Assembly: GCF_002075285.3 (NCBI RefSeq) | Contig: NZ_CP021983.2 | Span: 780,001 to 812,000, forward strand | Direction of reading: 5' to 3' | DNA: 32,000 nucleotides | Origin: Halomicronema hongdechloris C2206 | GTDB taxonomy: Bacteria; Cyanobacteriota; Cyanobacteriia; Phormidesmidales; Phormidesmidaceae | Shown: piece by piece, positions 24,871-31,951 of the stretch | Layout of the letters: the number at the start of each line of letters is the position of its first letter | Numbering within the stretch: the first letter of the stretch is position 1 | Notes under the pieces: model-generated | Database searches by the model: none | Told to the model about the DNA's origin: nothing | Seen by the model: the letters and a program-made list of their open reading frames with translations, nothing else | Translations under genes and position numbers: made by a program

Positions 24871-25626
24871 TTAGAGCATACCGGCAACCACCATGCTACC
24901 GATGGTGCGGGTATAGTGTTGGCCATTGTAAGCGAGAATGACAACCGGCTCCTCGGACATCTCAATACGATGGACTCGCACCCGCCCACCCGCTAAGCTA
25001 TCTCCGACACTGACGTAACGGCTGGTTTTGGCATTGGGTTCTTTCACAATTAAATGGATGCGATCGCCAACTTGCACGACCCCACTGAGTTCAAGGGCAT
25101 CTACTGGGTTTCGGGCAGGAGAAGACGCTGCCGCTACTGCAGGTGTCTCGGGGGCAACTTCACGGCTAGGTAAGGGGGGCAAGGAAGCCGGGGGGGCAGT
25201 GACGGATACAGTTGGCAGGCTCTGGGGAGGCGTCGCCACAGCCACTGGAGTCGTGGTCGCAGCGGTGGCAACTGGCGTCGCCGTCGCCGCGTCTGGACCA
25301 GTTAGGGAGGGTCGGGTCAGGGGAGCAAAGGGATCGGTCCGTCCAGCAGTCACCTGGGCTAATCGGGCTGCCTTATCGGATGGCTGTAACAGCCCGGGAT
25401 CGGCCAATGTCAGTAGTGATGTTGTCGAGGCCAAGGGAGAGGTGAACAAGGGCGGTGCTGGGCTAGTCTCTGTGACGACCTTTGGAGTCGAAACGTCTGC
25501 CTGTTCCGGCGAGGCAGTCATCAAGCGCACTAAGCTACCAACGGCCAACGCTAGGCCAACGCTGCCAGCCAAGACCCAGATGACCTGACGATTTGAGAGT
25601 GTTTGCGGTGCAGCGGATGGTGTCAT
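24871..25626 (-). CDS. Hypothetical membrane-anchored protein with a Pro/Thr/Ala-rich linker and a C-terminal beta-rich domain (PilP/GspC-like by eye)
   Basis: N-terminal TM helix (VIWVLAGSVGLALAVGSL), then a PTA-rich low-complexity stretch, then C-terminal LSGVVQVGDRIHLIVKEP...VSVGDSLAGGRVRVHRIE.... ATG 25626 is preferred over TTG 25632. Confidence 0.5.
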   Translation of the reverse strand: MTPSAAPQTLSNRQVIWVLAGSVGLALAVGSLVRLMTASPEQADVSTPKVVTETSPAPPLFTSPLASTTSLLTLADPGLLQPSDKAARLAQVTAGRTDPFAPLTRPSLTGPDAATATPVATAATTTPVAVATPPQSLPTVSVTAPPASLPPLPSREVAPETPAVAAASSPARNPVDALELSGVVQVGDRIHLIVKEPNAKTSRYVSVGDSLAGGRVRVHRIEMSEEPVVILAYNGQHYTRTIGSMVVAGML

Positions 25627-25696
25627 TGCCAATTCCCCAGGACTAACCCACGAGCTTCCCTGTAGGATAGCGAATTATTCCTAAAATAACGTTAGA

Positions 25697-25867
25697 TTAA
25701 CGCCATTTCCTCAGCTTAATAATTTTGCTCAATACGCTCCCTGGTTGGCTGGGTCCCCCTGGCACGCCAAGGCAGCAGATTGTGATGAAATACATCCCGG
25801 CGGAGCCATAATCGTATCCCTGCAGTCGAATGGAACGACGATGGTGGTTTTCGGGGTCGTAGTTCAT
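25697..25867 (-). pseudogene. Truncated REP-associated tyrosine transposase (RAYT, IS200/IS605-like Y1) gene remnant
   Basis: MNYDPENHHRRSIRLQGYDYGSAGMYFITICC matches the conserved N-terminus of cyanobacterial RAYT-like transposases from memory. Similarity ends after ~32 aa (about 25772) and the frame stops at 25697; full-length members are much longer. Confidence 0.55.
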
Positions 25868-25948
25868 CAGAGATATGCGATCGCTTCTCCAGTTAGAATT
25901 CCCTGAATATCGGGTGGAGGCGTATGTCTGCAGATCACACATGGGATA

Positions 25949-26053
25949 GGGGCGCCCAGGCTATTGGTCGGGGCGCACGGGCTATCGGTCGGGGCGCCCA
26001 GGCTATCGGTCGGGCGCCCAGGCTATTGGTCGGGGCGCACGGCCGTGCGCCCC
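25949..26053. repeat. REP-like tandem array: four ~21-nt units followed by a perfect 22-nt palindrome
   Basis: The units are GGGGCGCCCAGGCTATTGGTC (25949-25969), GGGGCGCACGGGCTATCGGTC (25970-25990), GGGGCGCCCAGGCTATCGGTC (25991-26011) and GGGCGCCCAGGCTATTGGTC (26012-26031). They are followed by GGGGCGCACGGCCGTGCGCCCC (26032-26053), which is its own reverse complement. Confidence 0.9.
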
Positions 26054-26104
26054 GACGGGCGGTGGGGTACCACGTGTAGGGTTTGCAGAATCGGTGTTAA
26101 TCCT

Positions 26105-26533
26105 TCAATGTCGCGGCATCGGCCATAGCTTTTTGAATAGCGTTTGCTGGCCATTGAGAAACGCCAGCAACTCCTCCGATTCCACTGAGCCATCGGGAAA
26201 CAGGGTGACCAGCTCGCAATATTGCCGGGTGACTAAGGGCATGGGCTTTCTAGGATTCTCAGGATCTTTCACCAGCCGCACTTTGGGATACATGCGATGC
26301 CACAGCCGCCCAATAGTTCCCATTTGCCCCGTCATTGATGACCGATAAATTGATCCCTCGGGAATGCCAACCGACGGAATCGCCTCTCGATAGGGGCCAT
26401 GCAGCCATCGCACCGCTTCACAATCGTCCAGGCCATCGGTTTCACGTCCCCACACCTGCACCCTGTCTGGATGCCAGGCTTCTCGCCAGTTGGCATGGGT
26501 ATCGGGTTGGGGCGTCACGGTTTGCAACTGCAT
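26105..26533 (-). CDS. Hypothetical 142-aa protein, translationally close partner of the RAMP gene
   Basis: The ATG at 26533 lies 15 nt downstream of the RAMP stop codon on the same strand. The ORF is intact and no motif was recognised. Confidence 0.6.
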   Translation of the reverse strand: MQLQTVTPQPDTHANWREAWHPDRVQVWGRETDGLDDCEAVRWLHGPYREAIPSVGIPEGSIYRSSMTGQMGTIGRLWHRMYPKVRLVKDPENPRKPMPLVTRQYCELVTLFPDGSVESEELLAFLNGQQTLFKKLWPMPRH

Positions 26534-26548
26534 CCACTCTCGGGCCGC

Positions 26549-27817
26549 CTAGCGCACTTCGGCAATGAAATCCCCTACTTTTTCCAGCTTGCGCACCCGT
26601 ACATCCCGTACCTGGGACCGTTTACCCAACCATTCCCAGTGGCAGCCGATCAGCGGTTTGTAGCCCTGGTCATAGTAGTCGGGATAGACCAGACGATGGT
26701 CGGCCCGGCGCCAGGATTTGCCAAAGCCACCGAAGACCATGGCAAAGCGGGTCAAGGCTTCAATCAGTTTCGTTAGGGCTTGCCGCTGGGGCTGAGGTAG
26801 GTCTCGGGTGAGCCGCCAGAGCAGTTCTCCCTCCACCGTGTAAGTAGGCTGACTATAAGAACCTTGCCCAAAATCATCTAGCTCCAACTGGGTGTCGAGA
26901 AAGGCCATACTCAGCAAGCCCACAGTGGCTCCACCCCTAATGCCGCCAAACAGCTCCTGGACCAAACCTTCAGCTTGATCTGCACTGGTTAAGCCGCCAA
27001 AGATACGCAGGGCATGGCCCCGGATGGCGGCGCGAAATACGTTGGGGCGAAACTCTCCGGTGCCATCCACTAGCTTGGCAGCCTGACCCTGCCCCTTGAG
27101 GCGCGTGCGGTAGAGAATATCGCTGCTGCGTTGTTGGGGTTGACCATAACCGGCACTGACGCGACAGCCCAGCCCCAGGGACAGCGCCGTTTCCCAAATA
27201 TGCCAGATTTGCTCCCATTCAAGGTCATCCAGGGGAGTAGTGCTGGAGATGCCGACTGCCAGCTTAGGTTTATAGAGGGAGATCTGTATGAATGCCCCGC
27301 CTTCCTTCTCTCCAGATTTCACCTGCCACTGCTGCTGGGGATGGACAATATCCACCAGGTTCTGAGTCCAGCGGGTATCGGTGGGGTAACCGCCATGAAA
27401 TCGTAAAATGCCGGGGCGAAAGTCATCATTTTCTAGTTTTTCGCCGCAGTAGCGATCGCATGTCCCTTCCGGTAATTCCCCCGTCCGTTCCAGCTGCCGA
27501 GCCGCCTGGCGGAACACGCCCTTCATGCTGCTGCCGGGGTAAAAGGGCCAACCCCTGGCCCCAATCACCGGACGAATCACCCCATCGTCTTGGCCGCTAT
27601 TGGTAATGAAGCGCCAGCTCAAGGCATAGGTGCGGGTTTGCACGTCTTTGCCAAAATCAGGCGCCTCTGGATAGGCCTTGTCGACCCATTCATCGGCCCA
27701 GCGCTCGGCATCTTGCTCGGGGGCCTTAGGGATCAGCCGCTGCACCTGGCAGCGACCCTCCACTTGGGCCCGAAACATCAGGGGGACTTGGTTGGCGATC
27801 GTAGAGGAGTGAGCCAT
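26549..27817 (-). CDS. RAMP-superfamily protein: Cmr6-like N-terminal RAMP domain plus a second RAMP-like C-terminal half
   Basis: The N-terminal half has LSWRFITNSG...GWPFYPGSSMKGVFR (Cmr6-type WR...G.P.iPGSS.KG..R), GILRFHGGYP, LVDIVHPQ (Cmr6 'D...pH') and a glycine-rich loop LGLGCRVSAGYGQ. The C-terminal half has FRPNVFRAAIRGHALRIFGG, ELFGG, VGLLSMAF and FGGFGKSW. ATG 27817 is preferred over TTG 27853. Confidence 0.7.
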   Translation of the reverse strand: MAHSSTIANQVPLMFRAQVEGRCQVQRLIPKAPEQDAERWADEWVDKAYPEAPDFGKDVQTRTYALSWRFITNSGQDDGVIRPVIGARGWPFYPGSSMKGVFRQAARQLERTGELPEGTCDRYCGEKLENDDFRPGILRFHGGYPTDTRWTQNLVDIVHPQQQWQVKSGEKEGGAFIQISLYKPKLAVGISSTTPLDDLEWEQIWHIWETALSLGLGCRVSAGYGQPQQRSSDILYRTRLKGQGQAAKLVDGTGEFRPNVFRAAIRGHALRIFGGLTSADQAEGLVQELFGGIRGGATVGLLSMAFLDTQLELDDFGQGSYSQPTYTVEGELLWRLTRDLPQPQRQALTKLIEALTRFAMVFGGFGKSWRRADHRLVYPDYYDQGYKPLIGCHWEWLGKRSQVRDVRVRKLEKVGDFIAEVR

Positions 27818-27837
27818 GGGGATACCTGAATCGAGAT

Positions 27838-28392
27838 TTAAACCATCAACCAACCAAACAGTTGGTCTGCGGTGAGGGAGAGGTTAATATCCGTCAGCAC
27901 TGGCAGGGGAACATCCCCCCTGAGCAACTGCACCCGCTGATCGGACCAAACCACCAGGACCGTTTCTTCCTCCGGGTCAAGCAACCAGCCCAGTTCGGTG
28001 CCCTGTTGGGCACAGTGCAGCAGGTTGCCTAACACGCGAGTCTGGCTCTGCTCAGGTGAGAGAATTTCGATCGACCAGTCTGGGTGAATGGTGAAGCGAT
28101 TGGCGATGCGCCCTGAGGGTTGACGAGGAATGCGGCTCCAGCGAAATACCGCCACATCAGGCACGATGGATCGACCAGCAACCGTACAGCGCAATTCAGG
28201 AAAGGCCATGGCGACTTTGGCCGCCTTGGCTTGCTGATTAATCGTTTCACACAGGGTTCCCTGTAGCAGGCTGTGTTCCCCTTGTGGCATGGGTTTCTGG
28301 ATGACTTTGCCATCGATAAATTCAGAGGCGGGCTTGGTTTCAGGGAGTTTTAGGAATGCTTCCAGGGTGAGCGATGAGGTTGAAATGGTCAT
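27838..28392 (-). CDS. Uma2-family (DUF820) PD-(D/E)xK endonuclease-like protein
   Basis: Typical Uma2 pattern: EFIDGKVIQKPMP, PDVAVF, SIEILSPEQS, LGWLLDPEE. Confidence 0.8.
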   Translation of the reverse strand: MTISTSSLTLEAFLKLPETKPASEFIDGKVIQKPMPQGEHSLLQGTLCETINQQAKAAKVAMAFPELRCTVAGRSIVPDVAVFRWSRIPRQPSGRIANRFTIHPDWSIEILSPEQSQTRVLGNLLHCAQQGTELGWLLDPEEETVLVVWSDQRVQLLRGDVPLPVLTDINLSLTADQLFGWLMV

Positions 28393-28397
28393 GGTCT

Positions 28398-28982
28398 CTA
28401 CTCTTCTTCAGCGAGCTCTCCAGCTGCCAGTAGTGTCTCCACCGTCAGGTCCAGCTCTGGAAACGTTGGGGATACCAGTGGCTGATGGCCGACAAACACC
28501 GTCTCCTCATACATGCCTTCGTCAAGCTGCAGCACCGTCACCGTTGACTGCAAGGGGTCAACGATCCAATATTCTGGTACGCCCAGGGCGGCATATTCCG
28601 TGCGCTTGTAACGGTAATCGCGGCTGACGGACTCTGGACTCACCACCTCCACCGTCAGTAAGGGAGCAGTTTGGCAAATGGCGGATTCATCAAGAAAATT
28701 GCTGACCTGCTCTGGAGTTAGTACATAAACGTCAGTCAAACGTGATTTCCGGACGCCGGTACGAATCCCCGCTTCTCGAAAACACAGCCATCTAAAGCCT
28801 AAACGACGAATTTCAGTATCGAGGCACTGCTCAATGAATTTAGCTATCAGCATATGCCGAAACGTTGGTGGCGTCATTGCGACCAGTGCTCCATCCACCA
28901 GTTCGTAGCGAGCGGCAGTGCCGTCGTCGTAGGCGACATAGTCTTCAAAGCTGATCTGGGTTGTGGCGGTTGACGGTGTCAT
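28398..28982 (-). CDS. Uma2-family (DUF820) PD-(D/E)xK endonuclease-like protein
   Basis: YELVDGALVAMTPP, TDVYVL, TVEVVSPES..D...K..YAALGVPEYWIVDP. ATG 28982 (or GTG 28985). It is separated from the next Uma2 gene by 5 nt. Confidence 0.8.
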   Translation of the reverse strand: MTPSTATTQISFEDYVAYDDGTAARYELVDGALVAMTPPTFRHMLIAKFIEQCLDTEIRRLGFRWLCFREAGIRTGVRKSRLTDVYVLTPEQVSNFLDESAICQTAPLLTVEVVSPESVSRDYRYKRTEYAALGVPEYWIVDPLQSTVTVLQLDEGMYEETVFVGHQPLVSPTFPELDLTVETLLAAGELAEEE

Positions 28983-29140
28983 CACACCCCCTCCAGTACT
29001 AAGGTGCTGTGGGTGTTTTTATTCTGGCATCTCCCTAATAGCTGGCAGTGACACCAAGGTGGTAGGGTGGGCATTGTCTCATCTAGAGTTTGGGCTGATG
29101 GTGATTGAGCCAAGCAATGCCCGCCGTTTCGCATAGTTGG

Positions 29141-29177
29141 TGGGCAAGCCAGGATTGTCGTATTTTGCTGAGGTGAC
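29141..29177. repeat. Copy A of a 37-nt dispersed repeat
   Basis: TGGGCAAGCCAGGATTGTCGTATTTTGCTGAGGTGAC is 32/37 identical to 31084-31120 by manual alignment without gaps. Confidence 0.75.
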
Positions 29178-29407
29178 CTGTGATGGGATTGCCCACCCTA
29201 CTTTCCTTGGTTACACTCTGAAACCGCCCCAATTCTGTCCAGGGATATGACAACCATGCTGACATCTGGTGACGTAACGATCCGGCAGGAGTTATCTCAA
29301 GTGGGCATAGGTGGCGTGACCCAGTTTCCCTTGCCAGAGATCACTCTACCCAATGCCTGGCCCTTCTTTGGGAAAACAGACCTCCCCCTCAGAGTCGATG
29401 AGACGCT

Positions 29408-30589
29408 ATGAAAACAATCCGCAGCCTGCGCCTTAGTCAGCGATTACCCATTTTATTGGGGGTGGCATTGACTGCCTGCGCCCAGATCACCGTCACTGGA
29501 CTGACCCAGGGAGAACAGGCGAATCAAACCATCACCGTCAACGCCCTGGAGATCAAACGTGGGCGAATTGATACCCTGGCTCGGGTCCAGACCTTTCAAG
29601 GTCAACCCGCTGTTGATTCGATTAACGAGCTCGCTATTCAGCTCAGCATTACCGAAGCCAATAATCCGCCGGATTTCAGCGAAACCTACTACTACCTCGC
29701 CATCAGTAGCCCCAAAGAAGCCATTCTGGGAGGAACGACCGGTGACCCCAACTATGTCCCTAACCAAATTGGCAAATTAACGTTTCTGACACTTAATCAA
29801 GGTGATAACCGAGTCGAAGCCGCCCCCCAAATCGGAGATGCCCATGCAGGCGCATCCTGGTTGGCGAGAGTTGAAGCCGATGATCGGACGATTCCCTGGT
29901 CCATTACAGAGGGCGATAATTGCTTTCTGCTCGAAGCGGAGGAGGAAGATTGCTTTGATATGGAAACCCTGTCTCGTCTGCTATTCGAAACCCTGGCAGA
30001 CTCCATAGAACAGGGTATGCGCAACGATATCCCAGCCATCCAAAGCATTCGCCATCGCCTCCATTTCGTACCGCGAGTGAGTCATCCAGCGATCGGGTTG
30101 AATAACCGACCGGCTAAGGGCTTCGGGTTTATCTACTTTGCTCAAATTAATGTGCCCGGTGCCAATTTCCAGGTGTATATACCCATTAATTTCTTGTTTA
30201 TTGCCAATGTCAATCAGTACATCCTTGTGGTGGACCCGCTCGAATTGGACACCCAGGATCAAAAGACCATTGCCCAAATTTATGTCAAAGAGAATATCGC
30301 TGGGGGCATTGATCTCAACCTTACCGAGCAGATTATCCGCGACCAACTCATCGACCAACTCCAAGCTGCTCCCTTACCGGTTCTGATTCCAGGTATTGAT
30401 TTTTCCGAGGCCCTGTTAACGGCCATGAATGGTGCTGCTGGTAATCCCTCGCAACTCTCCGATGATTTTGATATTTTATTGAGCCCATCTGGGGAAAATC
30501 GGGATCTGGCAACCACCATTCTATGGGAACAACTGGTTCCCGGTAATATCCTGCCCCGCAATCAAGTCGACCTTTTCTTCCTGGAGTAA
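29408..30589 (+). CDS. Hypothetical lipoprotein (393 aa)
   Basis: Signal peptide with lipobox LTAC (MKTIRSLRLSQRLPILLGVALTAC). No recognisable motif, and the codons are visibly more AT-rich than in the core genes. Confidence 0.6.
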   Translation: MKTIRSLRLSQRLPILLGVALTACAQITVTGLTQGEQANQTITVNALEIKRGRIDTLARVQTFQGQPAVDSINELAIQLSITEANNPPDFSETYYYLAISSPKEAILGGTTGDPNYVPNQIGKLTFLTLNQGDNRVEAAPQIGDAHAGASWLARVEADDRTIPWSITEGDNCFLLEAEEEDCFDMETLSRLLFETLADSIEQGMRNDIPAIQSIRHRLHFVPRVSHPAIGLNNRPAKGFGFIYFAQINVPGANFQVYIPINFLFIANVNQYILVVDPLELDTQDQKTIAQIYVKENIAGGIDLNLTEQIIRDQLIDQLQAAPLPVLIPGIDFSEALLTAMNGAAGNPSQLSDDFDILLSPSGENRDLATTILWEQLVPGNILPRNQVDLFFLE

Positions 30590-30697
30590 CCCGAGCTTGG
30601 GTTAAGTCATTCAATCAGAATTCGCTCCCATGGAGCGGCCGTCGTGTGGGTTGAGGCACGAAACCCACGACCCTTTGAATCAGCTTTTGCACCGTGA

Positions 30698-31216: not shown

Positions 31217-31951
31217 TTATTTCCTAATTAGAGAGGTTGACAATGTTTTTAGGGCTTCATCTATTCTTTGAAGACCACATTCAGAACTACTTTCACTCCA
31301 CTCTAGTAATGCATAAGTACGGATACCCTGTGCTGCAGAACTTTTGGGTATGACATTAGAGGGTGGCTTTACTATGAATAGGAGTTGTTCAAACTGAACT
31401 TGTGGAAGATTTTGGATTAAATCAAAAAGTTCGTTCCGCTGCTTTATTTCATCGTAAGTTTTAACTTGATCTTCTTCTAAATATTCATCTGATTCTAATT
31501 CATTTTGAAAGAAATCCCTAAGGCAGGTCAATAGTGAGCAAACATCATCACTAATTAAAAATCCCCATCTCTCAATGATTTCATTAATAATGTTGATCAA
31601 TTCGGAAAAATCTTTCTCTTCATATAAACCTATGCAAGTCAATAGCTGACTACCGCAATTATAGATTTCTTCCTCATCGCTGTCTTCACCAGCCTGTAAG
31701 ATGGAACTAGCAATATCTGCAGCATATTTAGTTGATTCAATGAAATTCATCCAGAATTCATTAATTGCATCTAAAAGGCGATCAGTTCCAGTAGCACAAA
31801 TTTCATGGTAATAAAATTCTATTTGGTGCTTTTTTAGATAATTCTCATAGCGAGAATATTTTGAATCGTTTTTTTCTAAACAATCTAGATCCTGTCTTAT
31901 TTCGGACAGCAAATCTTGATAGTGTCTGCTCAGCCTTCGGGAGCATCTCAA
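31217..31951 (-). CDS. Hypothetical protein encoded in a strongly AT-rich (foreign-looking) segment; the C-terminus resembles a short helical adaptor/effector-associated domain
   Basis: 244-aa ORF whose composition contrasts sharply with the rest of the window. The C-terminal NLPQVQFEQLLFIVKPPSNVIPKSSAAQGIRTYALLEWSESSSECGLQRIDEAL resembles adaptor domains seen on cyanobacterial STAND/caspase/TIR conflict proteins (from memory). The TTG start at 31951 is uncertain. Confidence 0.55.
   Translation of the reverse strand: MRCSRRLSRHYQDLLSEIRQDLDCLEKNDSKYSRYENYLKKHQIEFYYHEICATGTDRLLDAINEFWMNFIESTKYAADIASSILQAGEDSDEEEIYNCGSQLLTCIGLYEEKDFSELINIINEIIERWGFLISDDVCSLLTCLRDFFQNELESDEYLEEDQVKTYDEIKQRNELFDLIQNLPQVQFEQLLFIVKPPSNVIPKSSAAQGIRTYALLEWSESSSECGLQRIDEALKTLSTSLIRK

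Follow-up and report, generated by a model that had tools for sequence, protein, structure and literature searches.

The closest described relative of the gene analysed here is Sll7085 of Synechocystis sp. PCC 6803, which two papers treat as a fusion of Cmr6 with Cmr1 belonging to the subtype III-Bv system (CRISPR3) carried on plasmid pSYSA (PMC6546367, PMC10243305). We examined a gene of this type in a 32,000-nt stretch of the Halomicronema hongdechloris C2206 genome (the window; positions 780001-812000 of a single 5.58-Mb contig), where it occupies 26105-27817 on the minus strand; coordinates below are window positions unless marked 'contig'. An initial annotation, made from the sequence alone, had read it as a compact polypeptide of about 420 residues with a Cmr6-like head and a second RAMP unit. 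Our analysis indicates instead a whole Cmr6-Cmr1 fusion gene of 570 codons plus stop (coding part 26108-27817) with a single in-frame TAG inside. It is very probably a stray, gene-sized duplicate of a cap subunit from a cyanobacterial type III-B variant, a nearby paralog being the working copy and the window copy a young pseudogene.

The minus-strand open reading frame (ORF) as first listed spans 26549-27853 from a TTG (434 amino acids), or 422 codons if begun at the ATG at 27817, which we take as the correct start because homologues begin at the same position. It is closed by a premature TAG (26549-26551, minus strand), read directly in the sequence as codon 423, where the paralog has CAG and close homologues encode Gln. 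The next ORF (26105-26533, 142 amino acids) lies downstream of the TAG in the identical frame and aligns with the C-terminus of homologues, and a translation with the TAG read as Q gives 570 amino acids collinear with homologues over their length. A search of 5.8 billion proteins returned 1,192 relatives, the best 120 of which are 506-579 amino acids long, nearly all of them 545-580, compared with 422-434 for the interrupted ORF. On this sequence comparison the 422-residue 'compact' protein is an artefact of the nonsense codon and the 142-residue ORF a part of the same gene. The polypeptide ending at 26549 is thus not upheld (an in-frame TAG stands there, and homologues have 550-580 residues), and what had looked like a compact two-RAMP protein with a 142-residue partner is corrected to one gene cut by a nonsense codon.

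To place the domains, we built an AlphaFold2 model of the read-through protein on a 56-sequence alignment of the family and compared it with known structures by Foldseek and VIA-align. The model has a mean predicted local distance difference test score (pLDDT) of 89.5 and a predicted template modelling score (pTM) of 0.88, and Foldseek returned type III RAMP proteins only. As modelled, residues 1-230 of the protein are Cmr6 and residues 232-568 make up a whole Cmr1 with both of its domains. The Cmr6-like domain, a Cas7-group RAMP encoded at 27128-27817 (minus strand), is recognized both by VIA-align and by profile search: model residues 1-228 superpose on Cmr6 3x1l_H with Z 13.5 (203 residues aligned, root-mean-square deviation (rmsd) 3.6), Cmr6 9x25_I reaches Z 13.2, and residues 57-230 match the Cas7 core of Csm3 chains with Z about 13. 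When the family profile was run against PDB sequences, Cmr6 chains were the three best matches (E 1.4e-8, 3.3e-8 and 5.3e-7), ahead of Csm3 and Cmr4. The remainder matches Cmr1 along its length in VIA-align, with model residues 233-566 covering Archaeoglobus fulgidus 9l7c_A (chain residues 3-327) at Z 20.8, 274 of 325 residues aligned and rmsd 3.5, residues 232-567 covering 4l6u_A at Z 20.2, residues 233-568 covering Pyrococcus furiosus 4w8x at Z 16.9, and residues 232-561 covering Cmr1 of Cmr-beta (6s91_J) at Z 14.3.

Within this superposition, the N-terminal RRM domain of Cmr1 takes up residues 232-398 (26624-27124, minus strand), as delimited by the secondary structure of the model: strand 234-245, helix 259-276, strands 302-316 and 323-336, helix 342-362, the glycine-rich loop FGGFGKSW and strand 392-396. 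The C-terminal domain follows in the same frame (residues 399-570; 26108-26623, minus strand), its last 142 codons being those earlier read as the separate ORF 26105-26533. The TAG falls within helix 411-431 of the model, early in this second Cmr1 domain. The view of the protein as two RAMP units headed by Cmr6 therefore survives in part: structure comparison supports a Cmr6 domain (1-229) and a second RRM (232-398) with its own glycine-rich loop, but the partner is a whole two-domain Cmr1 (232-568), of which the initial annotation saw only the first half because the nonsense codon cuts the ORF. The outcome that would have spoken against two units, a single RAMP fold with an unrelated tail, did not appear in the structure prediction. 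No solved structure of the fused form was found among the PDB searches run here, and the confident model offers domain boundaries for expression.

All of the motifs by which the two units had been recognized (GILRFHGGYP, LGLGCRVSAGYGQ, FRPNVFRAAIRGHALRIFGG, ELFGG, VGLLSMAF and FGGFGKSW) are present, from residues 136-145 to 362-369. We scored their conservation on the 56-sequence family alignment, in which identity falls as low as 31%. In the GILRFHGGYP strand (residues 136-145; 27383-27412, minus strand), F140 is invariant and L138, R139, G142 and P145 are at least 90% conserved. The end of the Cmr6 domain is marked by glycine-rich loop 1, LGLGCRVSAGYGQ (residues 214-226; 27140-27178, minus strand), with G215, G217, G223, Y224 and G225 invariant; it aligns to GAGSQINTGYGQ in Sll7085. 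In the Cmr1 part, FRPNVFRAAIRGHALRIFGG (residues 256-275) has R257, R266, R271 and G275 invariant, ELFGG (residues 288-292) has G291 invariant, and VGLLSMAF lies at residues 299-306. Glycine-rich loop 2, FGGFGKSW (residues 362-369; 26711-26734, minus strand), aligned to GGIGQGARR in Sll7085, has F365 invariant, as are R370 and R371 just after it, with G363, G364, G366 and W369 at least 90% conserved. With such residues invariant or at least 90% conserved across 56 relatives, these motifs are features of the family and the C-terminal ones are not chance matches. The absence of an acidic residue at the 'F.DA.P' position was also correctly observed: at the place of FLDAYP in Sll7085 the window protein has FHGGYP (H-G-G versus L-D-A), and LRFHGGYP predominates in the family alignment.

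The genome encodes three further relatives, 94%, 61% and 30% identical to the window copy. The closest is intact and lies at contig 814404-816113, 8.3 kb from the window copy and just past the window end, with a gapless alignment at 94% amino-acid and 89.6% nucleotide identity. It is the fifth gene of a minus-strand operon encoding Cas10/Cmr2 (632 amino acids; Cmr2_N and palm2), the RAMPs Cmr3 and Cmr4, a 140-residue protein in the Cmr5 position and the 570-residue fusion. The 61% copy belongs to another operon with identical gene order at 2.28 Mb (contig 2278094-2285352), which has a 518-residue Cas10 and ends with a Csm6-like CARF protein. The third relative, a 709-residue protein at 0.71 Mb (contig 713250-722513), follows a 1,095-residue Cas10, Cmr3, Cmr4 and a small protein; NCBIfam places a Cmr6 model at its residues 237-373 and a Cmr1 model at 403-475, both about at threshold (28.6 bits for TIGR01894 (Cmr1), with a cut-off of 28.65). 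Both short Cas10 proteins (518 and 632 amino acids) keep GGDD, at position 369 in the 632-residue protein, and lack an HD dipeptide in the region of the N-terminus; the 1,095-residue Cas10, by contrast, has HD at residue 40 and an N-terminal segment of about 185 residues with no counterpart in the short ones. A scan of the contig placed one CRISPR array in the vicinity of each operon, at 826-832 kb, 704-707 kb and 2.295 Mb. Within the 32-kb window, a window-wide repeat search detected no CRISPR array, and neither cas10 nor adaptation genes were found there.

In total, the genome has three Cmr-type loci, one of them classic III-Bv (1,095-residue Cas10 and 709-residue fusion) and two compact, with HD-less Cas10. 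The operon of the intact paralog extends over contig 811217-821074 (minus strand) and continues after the fusion with an AAA_16 ATPase and two ORFs of 269 and 244 amino acids, the latter being window 31217-31951. The array at contig 826-832 kb is about 5.8 kb long and has at least 56 copies of the repeat CCCCACCGATTGGGTTAATTCGGAATAGTTGGAAA. The whole cmr operon is flanked by a 111-nt inverted repeat (86%; window 30587-30697 and contig 821273-821383), whose arms stand 10.6 kb apart and which may mark a mobile or invertible cassette.

Judging from solved Cmr complexes, Cmr6 would be the last Cas7-like subunit of the backbone, ending the Cmr4 filament at the 3' end of the CRISPR RNA (crRNA), and Cmr1, a two-RRM protein, would sit beside it at that end and touch the RNA. 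In this lineage both are made as a single chain of about 565 amino acids in the order Cmr6 then Cmr1, a fusion that would fix their stoichiometry at 1:1 and terminate the Cmr4 filament on the crRNA. In H. hongdechloris this function would be supplied by the operon paralog that is 94% identical to the window copy.

The window copy has diverged from this paralog with a synonymous divergence (dS) of 0.41 and a ratio of nonsynonymous to synonymous divergence (dN/dS) of 0.092 upstream of the TAG and 0.096 downstream, and private amino-acid changes, polarized with ten outgroup proteins, number 13 on the window lineage and 17 on that of the paralog. Since both the ratios and the counts are similar, the window copy appears to have been under the constraint of a working gene for nearly all of its history. 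With dN/dS near 0.09 on both sides of the stop, the nonsense change (C-to-T, CAG to TAG at codon 423) appears to be recent. The window copy is most likely a young pseudogene, and its 422-residue product, lacking most of the second Cmr1 domain, is probably inactive; we infer both this loss of function and the role of the fusion in the complex. What is most unusual here is the long persistence of purifying selection on a solitary copy.

Several observations weigh against this account. The curated cut-offs of the family hidden Markov models (HMMs) are not reached: the window protein scores 17.3 bits against TIGR01898 (Cmr6), for which the cut-off is 51.1, and TIGR01894 (Cmr1) is not among its matches at E up to 0.01, so the Cmr1 assignment rests on the predicted structure and on collinearity with Sll7085. 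The Pfam RAMPs model (PF03787) likewise covers 103-238 of the 434-residue ORF with E 3e-4 and 21.8 bits, below its curated cut-off of 22.1; the RAMP, Cmr6 and Csx7 matches in Pfam and NCBIfam are all sub-threshold and by themselves leave the architecture undecided. The Cmr6 part, divergent and shortened, departs from the standard Cmr6 that forms a protein by itself. The TAG itself could be a sequencing error of the assembly, which would make the copy intact, and a low dN/dS past the stop would equally fit continued use of both pieces.

The last point leads to a different reading of the same statistics. A dN/dS of 0.09 over a dS of 0.41, with equal lineage-specific change, could mean that selection has preserved the free-standing copy to serve the neighbouring Cmr complex as a second and exchangeable Cmr6-Cmr1 head, with the TAG either a very recent loss or the divide of a two-piece head made through a restart at Met429; we consider this unlikely. 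To our knowledge, no type III effector has been described that swaps subunits at its target-sensing end. That the stray gene functions, or once functioned, as an alternative cap encoded on its own, giving one Cmr backbone two possible heads (the TAG being a recent loss, or the cap consisting of residues 1-422 plus the restart product from Met429), is a quite doubtful proposition overall. The long divergence under purifying selection in both segments and the lack of excess amino-acid change on the window lineage agree with it, but they would look the same had the copy diverged in an operon elsewhere and arrived recently, or were the stop merely young. The gene is tightly packed behind two co-directional Uma2 genes and so could be co-transcribed with them; in the other genomes examined, however, there is no solo copy, and 10 of 10 loci are operonic. 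An ATG that is ancestral in the family does stand 15 nt (five codons) past the TAG, although reading by eye revealed no convincing Shine-Dalgarno sequence before it, and a stop in mid-helix of the second Cmr1 domain is a poor natural split site.

Conservation of the post-TAG sequence as strong as that before it would also suit decoding of the TAG, by recoding or suppression, into a full 570-residue protein. ARAGORN identified 45 tRNA genes over the genome, however, none with a CUA, UUA or UCA anticodon, and the position is an ordinary Gln codon or residue in the paralog and close homologues. With no suppressor tRNA, we rejected recoding, a guess that has no positive support, as highly improbable. 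The idea that the locus is an orphan RAMP module outside CRISPR, a new minimal system of a roughly 420-residue two-RAMP protein, a 142-residue partner and two Uma2 nucleases, agrees with the lack of cas10, adaptation genes and a CRISPR array in the window, but we regard it as almost certainly wrong: it is refuted by the reading frame, which makes the 'partner' the C-terminus of the same gene, and by the context of the paralog, which lies 8.3 kb off, just past the window, in a complete cmr operon with an array. Homologues are, moreover, operonic in all ten loci, and Uma2 genes are also inserted in other cmr operons (locus L029 and Synechocystis PCC 7338).

By blastn, the DNA that the surroundings of the pseudogene candidate share with the operon comprises the gene itself (26105-27820 versus contig 814401-816116, 90%) and a 148-nt segment (29056-29203 versus contig 816172-816319, 87%). 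The two tandem Uma2-family genes (184 and 195 amino acids; 27838-28985, minus strand; Pfam Uma2 E 7e-29 and 2e-33) fill the 1.2 kb between gene and segment, whereas the equivalent gap in the operon copy is 55 nt. The segment (minus strand) has terminal inverted repeats (TIRs) and is 87% identical to the intergenic DNA between cmr5 and the fusion in the intact operon; it could either mark the upstream limit of the duplication or be a miniature inverted-repeat transposable element (MITE) shared by both copies. It is MITE-like in that seven elements bounded by the TIR GTAGGGTGGGC occur in the genome, about 137-227 nt long, six of them 137-141 nt. Such elements are at window 29062-29201 and at contig 836961-837098, 838449-838586, 2286103-2286243, 4750046-4750183 and 4961514-4961650; one lies upstream of each of the two fusion genes that share 94% identity and one just downstream of the second cmr operon. 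Neither blastn nor tblastn found a remnant of cmr5 or another cmr gene beside the stray copy. Over 25600-29450, a promoter and terminator scan gave counts no higher than in shuffled sequences, and Rfam returned nothing at E up to 0.1.

Four units of 20-21 nt (GGGCGCCCAGGCTATTGGTCGG...), arranged head to tail, occupy 25950-26042 directly 3' of the stray gene, near the point where it ceases to resemble the operon copy. Uma2 genes recur in or against cyanobacterial cmr operons: in addition to the two upstream of the stray fusion, one lies between cmr5 and the fusion in another cyanobacterial genome (L029:7369-7902), together with a further 375-residue ORF, and in Synechocystis PCC 7338 one separates cas10 from cmr3 (L008:5007-5561).

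To assess how widespread the family is, we sampled 301 genomes of Cyanobacteriota and found it in 36 of them, and in 27 of 134 genera. In ten loci from other cyanobacterial genomes, a short Cas10, Cmr3, Cmr4, Cmr5 and the fusion occur in this order without exception, none being solitary, and 4 of the 10 have a Csm6-like CARF gene after the fusion. The compact fusion (about 565 amino acids) is paired with an HD-less Cas10 in 12 of 12 operons examined. In the intact paralog, the second operon and all ten other genomes, the fusion is the last core gene of a cas10-cmr3-cmr4-cmr5 operon without a separate cmr1 or cmr6; the window copy, alone behind its Uma2 genes, is not.

Comparison with pSYSA places the family in a known class. 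The plasmid was not among the 18 records matched by tblastn against PLSDB and was taken by accession instead; its genes run cas10, cmr3, (peptidase), cmr4, a small protein and the 649-residue RAMP Sll7085. The window family shares with it the domain order (Cmr6 then Cmr1), a cyanobacterial host and a place as fifth gene, preceded by cas10, cmr3, cmr4 and a small gene resembling cmr5. BLASTP gives a single alignment between the two proteins (residues 78-418 of the window protein versus 142-498 of Sll7085; 21% identity, E 9e-13) that passes through both glycine-rich loops and the junction. The window protein, at 570 versus 649 amino acids, is about 80 residues shorter and only 21% identical, and the Cas10 of the compact family is short and HD-less (518-632 amino acids) compared with 979 for the partner of Sll7085. 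The genome's own 709-residue fusion, the one with the 1,095-residue Cas10, is closer to Sll7085 (35% identity). From these comparisons, the window family appears to be a distant, shorter branch of the Sll7085-type fusion. Its two-RAMP architecture, which the initial annotation had offered as non-standard, is ordinary, the class having already been published in cyanobacteria with a member collinear with the window protein; beyond belonging to a compact and fairly widespread subfamily of the cyanobacterial III-Bv fusion, the gene is unremarkable. Both papers on the Sll7085 fusion refer to Behler et al. 2018. As a class, III-Bv loci of the Sll7085 type are characterized by the lack of cas6 and by crRNA maturation through host RNase E.

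Among more distant systems, the archaeal III-B subunits Cmr1 and Cmr6 (A. fulgidus 9l7c, 4l6u and 3x1l; P. furiosus 4w8x; Sulfolobus islandicus Cmr-beta 6s6b) superpose domain for domain on the window model, but they are two chains of about 300-340 amino acids each, whereas here a single chain has a Cmr6 part of about 230 residues and only 9-16% identity to them. Consecutive Cas7/RAMP domains in one chain are likewise found in type III-D subunits (8s9t-8s9x, chains A and D) and in Cas7-11/gRAMP, with Foldseek probability 1.0 and E 5e-8 to 3e-5; in VIA-align, Cas7-11/gRAMP reaches Z about 12-13 over roughly 306-332 residues and III-D chain A about 12 over roughly 167. Cas7-11/gRAMP (III-E) combines four Cas7 domains with a Cas11 domain in a single large protein that works without Cas10, Cas5 or a separate Cas7. 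The suggested trend toward a fused effector of this type is not borne out, as the family sits in operons with Cas10, Cmr3, Cmr4 and Cmr5. We also rejected a miniature single effector resembling Cas7-11, given a protein of 570 residues with one Cas7-like domain plus Cmr1 and operons that retain those four genes. The fusions of III-D and III-E replace most or all of the backbone, III-E doing so without Cas10, Cmr3 and Cmr4, whereas in the present family fusion is confined to the two cap subunits, with separate genes for Cas10, Cmr3, Cmr4 and Cmr5.

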